NCBI RefSeq assembly: GCF_030384885.1
Contig: NZ_CP128613.1
Reading direction: 5' to 3' (one strand)
DNA: 64,000 nt
Source: Escherichia coli
GTDB lineage: Bacteria; Pseudomonadota; Gammaproteobacteria; Enterobacterales; Enterobacteriaceae
Shown here: positions 42,966 to 43,634 of the stretch, piece by piece
Numbering within the stretch: position 1 is the stretch's first letter
Layout: every line of letters starts with the position of its first letter
The notes under the pieces: generated by a model
What the model was told of the DNA's origin: nothing
What the model saw: only the letters and a program-made list of their open reading frames with translations
Database searches by the model: none
Translations under genes and position numbers: made by a program

Positions 42966-43634
42966 TTAATACTCTGAAGGCAAACGGTTGATAGCGACCA
43001 GTTTGCCTTTATTCATTTCGATATAGCCGCCTTTACGTAAAGCAGCGAGAACTTCTGCGACGACAGAACGCGATATGCGTGTACGTTGATGGATATAATT
43101 CATCACACCAATACGTGAGCGTAATTCTTCATTCCAGTCAATCATTGATAATAACGTTGCGCGGATTTGTTCGTAGGAATTATGCCCAATGAGCTGTACG
43201 TCACGTAATTCCAGAATTCTATTTTGCCAGGCTAACCAGTAAAAAGCGTCTCGCCAGAGTTGATTTTGTTCAATAAGGGTAATGGTTTGTTTGGCTGGCA
43301 GATGATATCCCGTACAATTTCCTTCTGATATTAATTTGTATGGTATATCGTTTTTCATTAAACCATCAGCCAGTCCCATAATATAAGGAGCCTGGGTAAT
43401 ACCGATAAGTACGTTTTCTTCTCTACGCAAAGAGATAACGCCCTCTAAAATAACGAAAGTATCTTCGCTATTGACATCACTTGAAAATATAACTTGCTTT
43501 TCATTATTAAACTCGAAGCTCGTGCCGTATCTGGACAAACATTTATCGAGCTTACCAAATTCCTGAAGAGGTTTAACTACAGATAACATTTGCGCGTCCT
43601 TTGCAGTAATGCCCGTCAAATCCTTGACGGGCAT
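42966..43634 (-). CDS. yaiV: Putative transcriptional regulator YaiV
   Basis: 222-aa ORF MPVKDLTGITAKDAQMLSVVKPLQEF...; an alternative ATG at 43589 is preceded by AAGGA and gives 207 aa. Confidence 0.8.
   Translation of the reverse strand: MPVKDLTGITAKDAQMLSVVKPLQEFGKLDKCLSRYGTSFEFNNEKQVIFSSDVNSEDTFVILEGVISLRREENVLIGITQAPYIMGLADGLMKNDIPYKLISEGNCTGYHLPAKQTITLIEQNQLWRDAFYWLAWQNRILELRDVQLIGHNSYEQIRATLLSMIDWNEELRSRIGVMNYIHQRTRISRSVVAEVLAALRKGGYIEMNKGKLVAINRLPSEY
43609..43634. other. Perfect 11-4-11 palindrome overlapping the annotated yaiV start
   Basis: ATGCCCGTCAA atcc TTGACGGGCAT; both arms contain an ATG. Confidence 0.9.

Follow-up and report, generated by a model that had tools for sequence, protein, structure and literature searches.

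Background

Rho-independent (intrinsic) terminators of the Enterobacteriaceae are built from a G+C-rich stem on the sense strand, generally of about 5-14 bp, which is closed by a loop of 3-8 nt and followed by a U-tract. Hairpins are also found at the 5' ends and in the leaders of messenger RNAs (mRNAs): 5'-terminal stem-loops stabilise E. coli mRNAs, as in the ompA leader, and CsrA targets of the glgC type carry one GGA in the loop of a hairpin and another at the Shine-Dalgarno (SD) sequence, the core selected for CsrA by systematic evolution of ligands by exponential enrichment (SELEX) being CARGGAU. At the level of DNA, dyad symmetry is a feature of the operators of the CRP/FNR family (TGTGA-N6-TCACA and TTGAT-N4-ATCAA). 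In leader and intercistronic attenuators, premature terminators of 5' untranslated regions that 3'-end mapping has catalogued in E. coli (PMC7815308), a terminator-type hairpin stands right before the ribosome-binding site and is passed by every transcript that proceeds to the downstream gene. In this paper, we describe a perfect palindrome at positions 43607-43636 of a 64,000-nt stretch (hereafter the window) of the E. coli contig NZ_CP128613.1 (assembly GCF_030384885.1). It lies in the spacer between ehaB (yaiT), which encodes an autotransporter adhesin, and iprA (yaiV), both on the minus strand, and, judged from its sequence and those of its orthologues, it forms, on the strand that is sense for iprA, an RNA hairpin like those of intrinsic terminators, which is conserved across much of the Enterobacteriaceae. 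As it is the second of two hairpins in the spacer, we refer to it as hairpin 2.

IprA is a poorly understood repressor of oxidative-stress resistance, which has been reported in E. coli, Salmonella and Enterobacter and regulates RpoS-dependent peroxide resistance. It is a CRP-like protein with an HTH_46 winged-helix domain and a weak cyclic nucleotide monophosphate (cNMP)-binding-like domain, and its gene is said to be part of a two-gene operon in Salmonella. The palindrome described here is a conserved cis element, and a transcript can reach iprA only by running through it or by starting within it. Its general significance is modest, as it adds one more terminator-type hairpin, an ordinary kind of element: the palindrome is a new and specific example of a kind already known, and the point about the iprA start codon that arises from it has already been fixed in RefSeq.

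Hairpin 2 shares several features with Rho-independent terminators. Its G+C-rich 13-bp stem and 4-nt loop fall within the usual dimensions, it starts 38 nt past the ehaB stop codon on the same strand, in an equivalent position across the 80 loci surveyed below, its helix is kept by compensatory and G·U changes, and some of its orthologues carry a canonical U-tract. As in tandem terminators, many genera have two hairpins past the autotransporter gene, of which it is the second. On the other hand, it differs from Rho-independent terminators in that its E. coli tail, AUUACUGCAA, has only three U in 10, in that its stem is unusually conserved, and in that a mere 17 nt, a distance that is fixed and leaves no room for a downstream promoter, separate its end from the next start codon. 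It resembles the leader and intercistronic attenuators in standing right before a ribosome-binding site, where it is passed by every transcript to the downstream gene; unlike in these, no antiterminator pairing, leader peptide or ligand-binding fold was identified in it, nor does any Rfam family match at hairpin 2.

Results and discussion

A perfect 13-bp palindrome in the ehaB-iprA spacer

A repeat search returned two arms of 13 nt each at 43607-43619 and 43624-43636 (TAATGCCCGTCAA and TTGACGGGCATTA), which are 100% complementary and separated by 4 nt. The perfect 11-4-11 repeat at 43609-43634 that had been pointed out in the initial annotation of this stretch is thus real, and is the core of a longer 13-4-13 repeat. 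Read as RNA of the minus strand, hairpin 2 consists of the 5' arm UAAUGCCCGUCAA (43636-43624), the loop GGAU (43623-43620) and the 3' arm UUGACGGGCAUUA (43619-43607), with GCCCGUCAA/UUGACGGGC as its G+C core. Folding of this RNA, which the initial annotation had suggested, gave a stable structure of -20.4 kcal/mol (z = -6.2 against dinucleotide shuffles), and the core alone has -14.9 kcal/mol.

Palindromes of this quality are rare. The window has just one other perfect inverted repeat whose arms reach 13 nt and whose loop is 3-8 nt long, at 4744-4774; arms of at least 13 nt never arose in 200 first-order Markov simulations, in which arms of at least 11 nt averaged 0.095 per simulation. A covariance model built from the orthologues scored 75.3 bits at the palindrome on the minus strand and 28.6 bits on the plus strand, and this was its sole significant match in the window. 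Since the palindrome is also single-copy in E. coli (median of one place per genome in 5387 genomes), a repeat of the REP/BIME or IRU type was rejected. A scan of 42500-44500 against Rfam at a permissive E-value gave, as the best overlapping matches, hits of 17-23 bits with E-values of 2-5, which are far under the gathering thresholds.

Conservation of the stem as an RNA helix

We surveyed 80 loci of IprA relatives, one genome per species, examining the 110 nt 5' of each start, and computed helix statistics from an alignment in which about 15 enterobacterial genera are represented by 41 distinct orthologous leaders. At the 11 helix pairs, 96.4% of the cells hold standard pairs; shifting the partner columns by 1-3 positions lowers this share to 32-43%. 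Both sides have changed at seven of the 11 pairs, and the covariation score of 0.229 compares with 0.108 in shuffled alignments, none of the 500 shuffles equalling it. Compensatory arms are seen in Yokenella (CCCACCA/UGGUGGG), in Phytobacter (UUCCCGCCA/UGGCGGGAA) and in the MGYG-HGUT-00110 isolate (locus L050; GCUCGUCA/UGACGAGC), and one helix pair passes through U-A (26 leaders), U·G (9) and C-G (6), which is the classical route of change in an RNA helix.

The substitutions also tell the two strands apart. The internal mismatches comprise 15 G·U on the iprA-sense strand and two A·C, which would read as G·U on the opposite strand (by cells, binomial p = 0.002; by clade, about 11 versus 1, p = 0.006), figures that are indicative only, as the sequences are related. 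The two pairs that close the loop, at which pairing costs little, show mismatches of every kind. Furthermore, the spacing between the conserved G+C cores is not constant, being 12 nt in 32 leaders, 11 nt in four and 9 nt in five. Mean column identity is 0.88 in the stem and 0.61-0.67 in its flanks.

Within E. coli itself, the 64 nt that run from an A+T-rich block through the hairpin to the iprA ATG are identical in 5346 of 5389 records, whereas no more than 1120 of 5384 records match this strain exactly over the neighbouring 64 nt; on this comparison, the stretch from the A+T-rich block to the ATG is under selection within the species. Taken together, the covariation, the G·U bias, the variable core spacing, the lack of a match to the FNR consensus (see below) and the strand scores of the covariance model point to a structure that is selected in the RNA of the iprA-sense (minus) strand.

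Two hairpins and the proposed termination of ehaB transcription

The ehaB-iprA spacer is 85 nt long and contains the palindrome. Upstream of it lies hairpin 1 (43656..43672, minus strand), which begins 2 nt past the ehaB stop codon (TAA, 43677-43675) and is, in the minimum-free-energy fold, a weak A+U-rich stem-loop, UUCUUC-ACUCC-GAAGAA. Its sequence varies freely between genera, and because of this divergence MAFFT and RNAalifold runs on the whole spacer left it unaligned, so that it was assessed in each sequence separately. It has a strong G+C-rich stem and a T-tract in Enterobacter, Lelliottia, Leclercia, Kluyvera, Trabulsiella and Phytobacter, and is weak, A+U-rich and devoid of a U-tract in the Escherichia/Citrobacter group, the E. 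coli hairpin 1 occupying the position at which other genera have a strong G+C-rich terminator after the autotransporter gene. Hairpin 2 is present in Escherichia, Citrobacter, Salmonella, Raoultella, Intestinirhabdus, Trabulsiella, Yokenella, Kluyvera, Phytobacter, Kosakonia, Superficieibacter and Pseudocitrobacter, is placed farther upstream in Buttiauxella and Atlantibacter, and is absent from the surveyed leaders of the Enterobacter/Lelliottia/Leclercia group. Nearly all loci that keep the autotransporter gene have at least one G+C-rich hairpin in the spacer, and in Yokenella hairpin 2 is the only strong one.

The 3' tail of hairpin 2 (43597..43606, minus strand; CUGCAAAGGA, or the above-mentioned AUUACUGCAA when read from the G+C core) runs into the ribosome-binding site. 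The statement in the initial annotation that no T-tract follows the palindrome is approximately right for so poor a tail, though a degenerate tract can be recognised in it. The 10 nt past the stem hold three T in E. coli, a mean of 4.2 in the Escherichia/Citrobacter/Salmonella/Raoultella clade (hereafter the E. coli clade), and a mean of 5.9 and up to eight in other genera. Tails of the UUUUUUGCA type, with 6-8 T in 10, occur in Kluyvera, Yokenella, Phytobacter, Kosakonia, Pseudocitrobacter and Enterobacter sp. kpr-6. Outside the E. coli clade, the predicted stem and tail of hairpin 2 are those of a textbook intrinsic terminator.

Loci that have lost the upstream gene provide a further comparison. 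In three Kluyvera loci (L044, L045 and L046; K. intermedia, K. cryocrescens and K. genomosp. 1), the autotransporter gene is gone and both hairpins are weakened relics. Hairpin 2 there either has an internal A·C mismatch, the free energy of its core being -5.3 and -1.4 kcal/mol compared with -10.7 to -15.9 kcal/mol elsewhere, or is remodelled. This is in keeping with relaxed selection after the loss of anything upstream to terminate; as it probably goes back to a single evolutionary event, it supports a terminator character of the hairpin only weakly.

We therefore favour, with moderate confidence, a reading in which hairpin 2 would terminate ehaB transcription, leakily in E. coli, and by its position would also gate the iprA leader or form its 5' end. 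A yaiT terminator or attenuator hairpin had been among the possibilities raised in the initial annotation, and it is the one that the covariation, the G·U pairs on the sense strand and the U-tracts of distant genera speak for. We infer termination, its leakiness and the gating of iprA as follows. RNA polymerase arriving from ehaB would transcribe the 13-bp hairpin, and in genera with a U-tract after it the transcript would be released there; in E. coli, where the tail has decayed to AUUACU, termination would probably be partial. As the 17 nt between the hairpin and the iprA start are too short for a promoter, all iprA transcripts would have to cross the hairpin or begin in it, making it the last element on their way. 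It would then act as a gate (an attenuator or insulator) on transcription to iprA, and would form or abut the 5' leader just before the SD sequence. The ATG at 43634 is no more than a part of the stem, and IprA starts at 43589; this start, like the structure of the hairpin, its strand and its conservation, is shown by the sequences compared here.

Several observations weigh against this reading. The AUUACU that follows the stem in E. coli is poor as a U-tract, and its tail score, computed by a formula of the Kingsford type, is -3.14. No leader of the Escherichia/Citrobacter/Salmonella clade has a weaker score, though some equal it, and it ranks near the weak end of all 41 leaders, the mean of the other genera being -4.63. 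A simple terminator scan with a rule of 5 T in 8 makes no call at the palindrome. No 3' end at the site is found in the K-12 Term-seq supplement (PMC7815308), a negative that is uninformative because the K-12 yaiT is disrupted by IS3 and the region is reported to be bound by H-NS. Moreover, in the E. coli clade the antisense tail is the more U-rich one (score -4.0, against -3.14 for the sense tail), with an average of 5.1 A in the 10 nt upstream of the stem against 4.2 T downstream. Many genera carry a canonical terminator (hairpin 1) as well as hairpin 2, so the latter is not needed merely to end the upstream gene. Finally, the stem is far more conserved than its flanks and than the freely drifting hairpin 1, and the distance from stem to ATG is 18-23 nt in nearly all leaders, which together argue for a constraint linked to iprA beyond termination.

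The promoter region and a possible 5'-terminal leader hairpin

One possible source of such a constraint is that iprA has a promoter of its own whose transcripts start at or near the first paired base. The stem-loop would then cap the 5' end of the mRNA, shield it from decay that depends on this end and set the context of the SD sequence, rather than act as a terminator, although the two readings are compatible and do not exclude each other. We regard this as possible, yet clearly short of probable. Just 5' of hairpin 2 lies the A+T-rich block GGTAATTTAATC (43641..43652, minus strand), which is conserved in the leaders of Escherichia, Citrobacter, Salmonella and Raoultella and holds TTTAAT (43647-43642), the proposed -10 element of a constitutive σ70 promoter. 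Genomic SELEX with the RpoD holoenzyme has listed a constitutive promoter in the yaiU>yaiV spacer, TTCACT-18-TTTAAT, together with H-NS binding (PMC3946193). A start about 7 nt past TTTAAT lands on the first bases of the stem, the block stands 7-9 nt 5' of the stem throughout the Escherichia/Citrobacter/Salmonella clade, and both the constancy of the stem-to-ATG distance and the persistence of the stem, in weakened form, in the Kluyvera genomes that lack ehaB are in line with a leader function. If the SELEX promoter is real, hairpin 2 stands at the 5' end of the iprA mRNA or within a few nt of it, as do stem-loops of the ompA type; unlike these, its orthologues have U-tracts, for which a structure that only caps the 5' end has no use.

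The listed promoter, however, was assigned from sequence and its start was not mapped. As a -10 element, TTTAAT is without the A at position 2, and a promoter scan of the spacer called no promoter. No transcription start site (TSS) was found for yaiV/iprA, or at K-12 coordinates 39444x-39450x, in the TSS supplements of PMC4782308 (Cappable-seq), PMC10301672 (in vitro run-off ROSE), PMC10469882 (EDL933) and PMC7132871 (Shigella M90T). Furthermore, in the genera with a full U-tract, termination after about 35 nt would be the expected fate of a transcript initiated at the stem. In the window, TTCACT (43669-43664) and TTTAAT are separated by 16 nt as compared with 18 nt in K-12.

The difference in spacing is due to a 2-nt (CT) deletion relative to K-12 at 43653-43654, which reads GAAGAAATA--GGTAATT here and GAAGAAATACTGGTAATT in K-12 (locus L002; alignment A1, columns 50-51). 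A CyuR site predicted for yaiV, GAAgAAATacTgGtAATTTAaTC (PMC11408624), overlaps the A+T-rich block, and the same deletion removes two bases from it. By these sequence differences, strains may differ in the strength of the iprA promoter or in its control by CyuR.

A possible CsrA-type target in the iprA leader

The stem conservation, a loop GGA that is invariant in the E. coli clade and the fixed distance of 18-23 nt with a GGA at the SD sequence are also what would be expected of a leader element recognised by a protein, whether CsrA or another RNA-binding factor, that bridges the loop and the SD sequence and controls iprA; we think this rather improbable. Its specific form, in which a CsrA dimer would bridge the loop GGA (CAAGGAU) and the SD GGA 24 nt downstream and thereby repress iprA translation or alter termination, appears equally doubtful, though it would be compatible with the terminator reading. 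The layout of a CsrA leader of the glgC type, with a GGA in a hairpin loop and a second one overlapping the SD sequence, is nevertheless present in E. coli: the loop GGAU (43623-43620) lies in CAAGGAU, which resembles the SELEX core, and the SD region AAAGGAC (43602-43596) supplies the second GGA (43599-43597). The loop GGA occurs in 27 of the 41 leaders, and in the E. coli clade it does not vary while the neighbouring loop base does. The remaining 14 leaders (Kluyvera, Trabulsiella, Yokenella, Pseudocitrobacter and others), however, keep the hairpin without a loop GGA, a GGA at the SD sequence is to be expected anyway, and no yaiV or iprA entry appears in the part that the search covered of the E. 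coli CsrA supplements from cross-linking and immunoprecipitation sequencing (CLIP-seq; PMC5694010). Were CsrA to act at the iprA leader, iprA translation or ehaB read-through would be coupled to the global physiological state.

Two further features of the leaders bear on CsrA. In the E. coli clade the SD sequence lies in the loop of a small predicted stem, UGC-AAGGAAU-GCA, which is seen in Citrobacter, Salmonella and Raoultella (alignment A4, columns 82-94); E. coli has diverged there (UGCAAAGGACGCGCA, 43587-43606), making the small stem weaker in this species. In addition, four loci without hairpin 2 (L074, L075, L078 and L080) have GACACAGGAUGUGAC right before the ATG. They share a conserved small inverted repeat, GACACAGGATGTGAC, about 15-30 nt 5' of the iprA-like start, whose predicted ACA-GGA-UGU hairpin looks CsrA-type and may be a remnant or a functional analogue of the top of hairpin 2; at L076 merely a degenerate form, AACACAGGATGTGAC, is found.

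The palindrome as a possible DNA operator

The initial annotation had also considered a site for a dimeric transcription factor, possibly YaiV itself. Such an operator would be bound by IprA or another regulator over the promoter or start and would repress iprA. Like the CRP/FNR operators, the palindrome has perfect dyad symmetry around a 4-bp centre, and the adjacent gene encodes a CRP-like protein with a winged-helix domain; its stem is conserved beyond the usual need of a terminator and adjoins the proposed promoter, FNR binding near yaiV has been reported in hns/stpA mutants (PMC3688515), and the predicted CyuR site lies immediately upstream (PMC11408624). The pattern of substitution is nonetheless that of an RNA helix and makes an operator unlikely. 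Internal mismatches are confined largely to one strand (15 G·U against two A·C), the arms change by compensatory substitution, as in Yokenella and Phytobacter, and the distant genera pair the hairpin with a U-tract on the sense strand; the core spacing of 12, 11 or 9 nt, depending on the genus, would be incompatible with a rigid operator bound by a dimer. Compared with the FNR consensus, the half-sites GTCAA-N4-TTGAC have an everted orientation, and a search for TTGAT-N4-ATCAA with at most two mismatches gave no match at 43607-43636, the nearest being at 43714-43727 and 43260-43273.

These two nearest sites are TTGATTTTGTTCAA (43260-43273; one mismatch), inside iprA, and TTGATCTACGTCAC (43714-43727; two mismatches), at the 3' end of ehaB. 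By their sequence, either may be where FNR binds near yaiV in the hns/stpA mutants (PMC3688515). Across the window, 56 FNR-like matches with at most two mismatches were found, as compared with 32.6 expected.

A possible terminator on the opposite strand

Less likely still is that hairpin 2 works on the plus strand, or in both directions, and keeps antisense transcripts, whether these read through from ampH or start at an internal antisense promoter, from entering ehaB. The gene ampH (plus strand) is convergent with iprA, and their stop codons abut at 42965 and 42966 with zero intergenic space, so each gene must terminate inside the coding sequence of the other; the sole terminator-like site past ampH, at 42986-42999 within the 3' end of iprA, has a weak stem of 5 bp. 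On the plus strand the hairpin has -22.8 kcal/mol and is followed by UAUUUAGAUU, and the better antisense tail score and the A-rich run 5' of the stem that is typical of the E. coli clade, both given above, would suit a terminator in this direction. The A-rich run, however, may equally be promoter or H-NS-site sequence, the antisense tails are poor outside the E. coli clade (e.g. -2.0 to -2.3 in Kluyvera), and it is the sense strand that shows the G·U bias and, in distant genera, the U-tracts. It would also be odd for ampH to have its terminator 640 nt away, on the far side of another gene.

The start codon of iprA

The longest open reading frame (ORF) for yaiV (42966..43634, 222 aa) opens with an ATG within the 5' arm of hairpin 2 (43632..43634, minus strand). 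This older model, which the initial annotation took for the annotated start, is the longest-ORF start only; the current start in RefSeq, as assigned by its annotation pipeline PGAP, is 43589. As had been noted there, no ribosome-binding site precedes the ATG at 43634, the 13 bases upstream of it (TTTAATCTAAATA) holding no SD-like purine run, whereas the ATG at 43589-43587 is preceded by the SD sequence AAGGA (43601-43597, minus strand) at a spacing of 7 nt, and a purine run of the AAGGA/AGGGA type is aligned at this position in most orthologous leaders. The iprA coding sequence (42966..43589, minus strand) is thus 624 nt long and encodes 207 aa, as annotated by RefSeq in strain 2013C-4282, which is 100% identical here, and in K-12 (NC_000913.3, 394506..395129; NP_414909.2). 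The NCBIfam equivalog for IprA, NF008810 (207 positions), is matched over 1-207 at 455 bits by the 207-aa product, which corresponds to residues 16-222 of the long ORF, and nearly all of the at least 120 homologues listed are 207-208 aa long, covering 91-93% of the 222-aa query. In addition, of 43 leaders with the hairpin, nine have no ATG in the arm, and among the 34 that do have one, it opens an uninterrupted reading frame in phase with iprA in only 13, about as often as expected by chance.

The proposal of the initial annotation that the palindrome is intergenic or in the 5' untranslated region, with the true start at 43589, is therefore well backed by RefSeq, NCBIfam, homologue lengths and the unconserved frame, and we hold with high confidence that the palindrome is a non-coding RNA structure and not the N-terminus of IprA. 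The 207-aa start is already in RefSeq, and the leader comparison adds independent support to it. That IprA starts at 43634 with MPVKDL..., the symmetry being incidental to coding, can be dismissed as scarcely credible: the ORF from 43634 is open and in frame, and a few database entries have 222-223 aa (P0011 and P0085), but the missing SD sequence, the RefSeq and NCBIfam start and the unconserved frame all speak against it, the likeness of the P0011 and P0085 peptides (MPVMDMTGI and MPVMQMAGI) merely reflects compensatory changes in the stem, and zero such palindromes are expected by chance. An N-terminal coding extension from 43634 was rejected on the homologue lengths, the leader frames and the NCBIfam match. 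This matters for users of older K-12 gene models or of longest-ORF calls, as the 222-aa yaiV model begins inside a structural element.

Gene context and other observations

The 501 bases around the palindrome are 100% identical to E. coli strain 2013C-4282, and the region was found in 5390 of 5426 complete genomes. The upstream gene ehaB (43675..46623, minus strand), identified from the ORF list and the RefSeq product name, is intact here and is the intact form of the K-12 pseudogene yaiT. The order hemB-ehaB-iprA-ampH is kept in nearly all of the 80 loci, and has likewise been described in a 2026 paper on the Salmonella orthologue SeaB (PMC13248724). The autotransporter gene has been lost at L076 and L063 as well as at the three Kluyvera loci, and at all of these hemB is the divergent neighbour of iprA; at L063 (Salmonella enterica subsp. 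arizonae) the deletion also takes the first 33 codons of iprA.

IprA of this strain differs from that of K-12 by R24S and N41S. The 64-nt segment 43500-43563 has 100% identity in one of 5389 records, namely this strain alone, so that at least one change in it, R24S (43520-43518), is private to the strain; owing to this private change, the segment gave no information as a coding control for conservation within E. coli.

The other palindrome of the window with 13-bp arms (4744-4774), TGAAATGCCGGAT-cttgt-ATCCGGCATTTCA, lies 5 nt past the stop codon of a plus-strand ORF (3807..4739) and is followed by the U-poor tail GATTGTTAAC and then by the REP-like sequence GCCGGATGCGGC. Probably this, too, is a terminator-type hairpin whose U-tract is weak.

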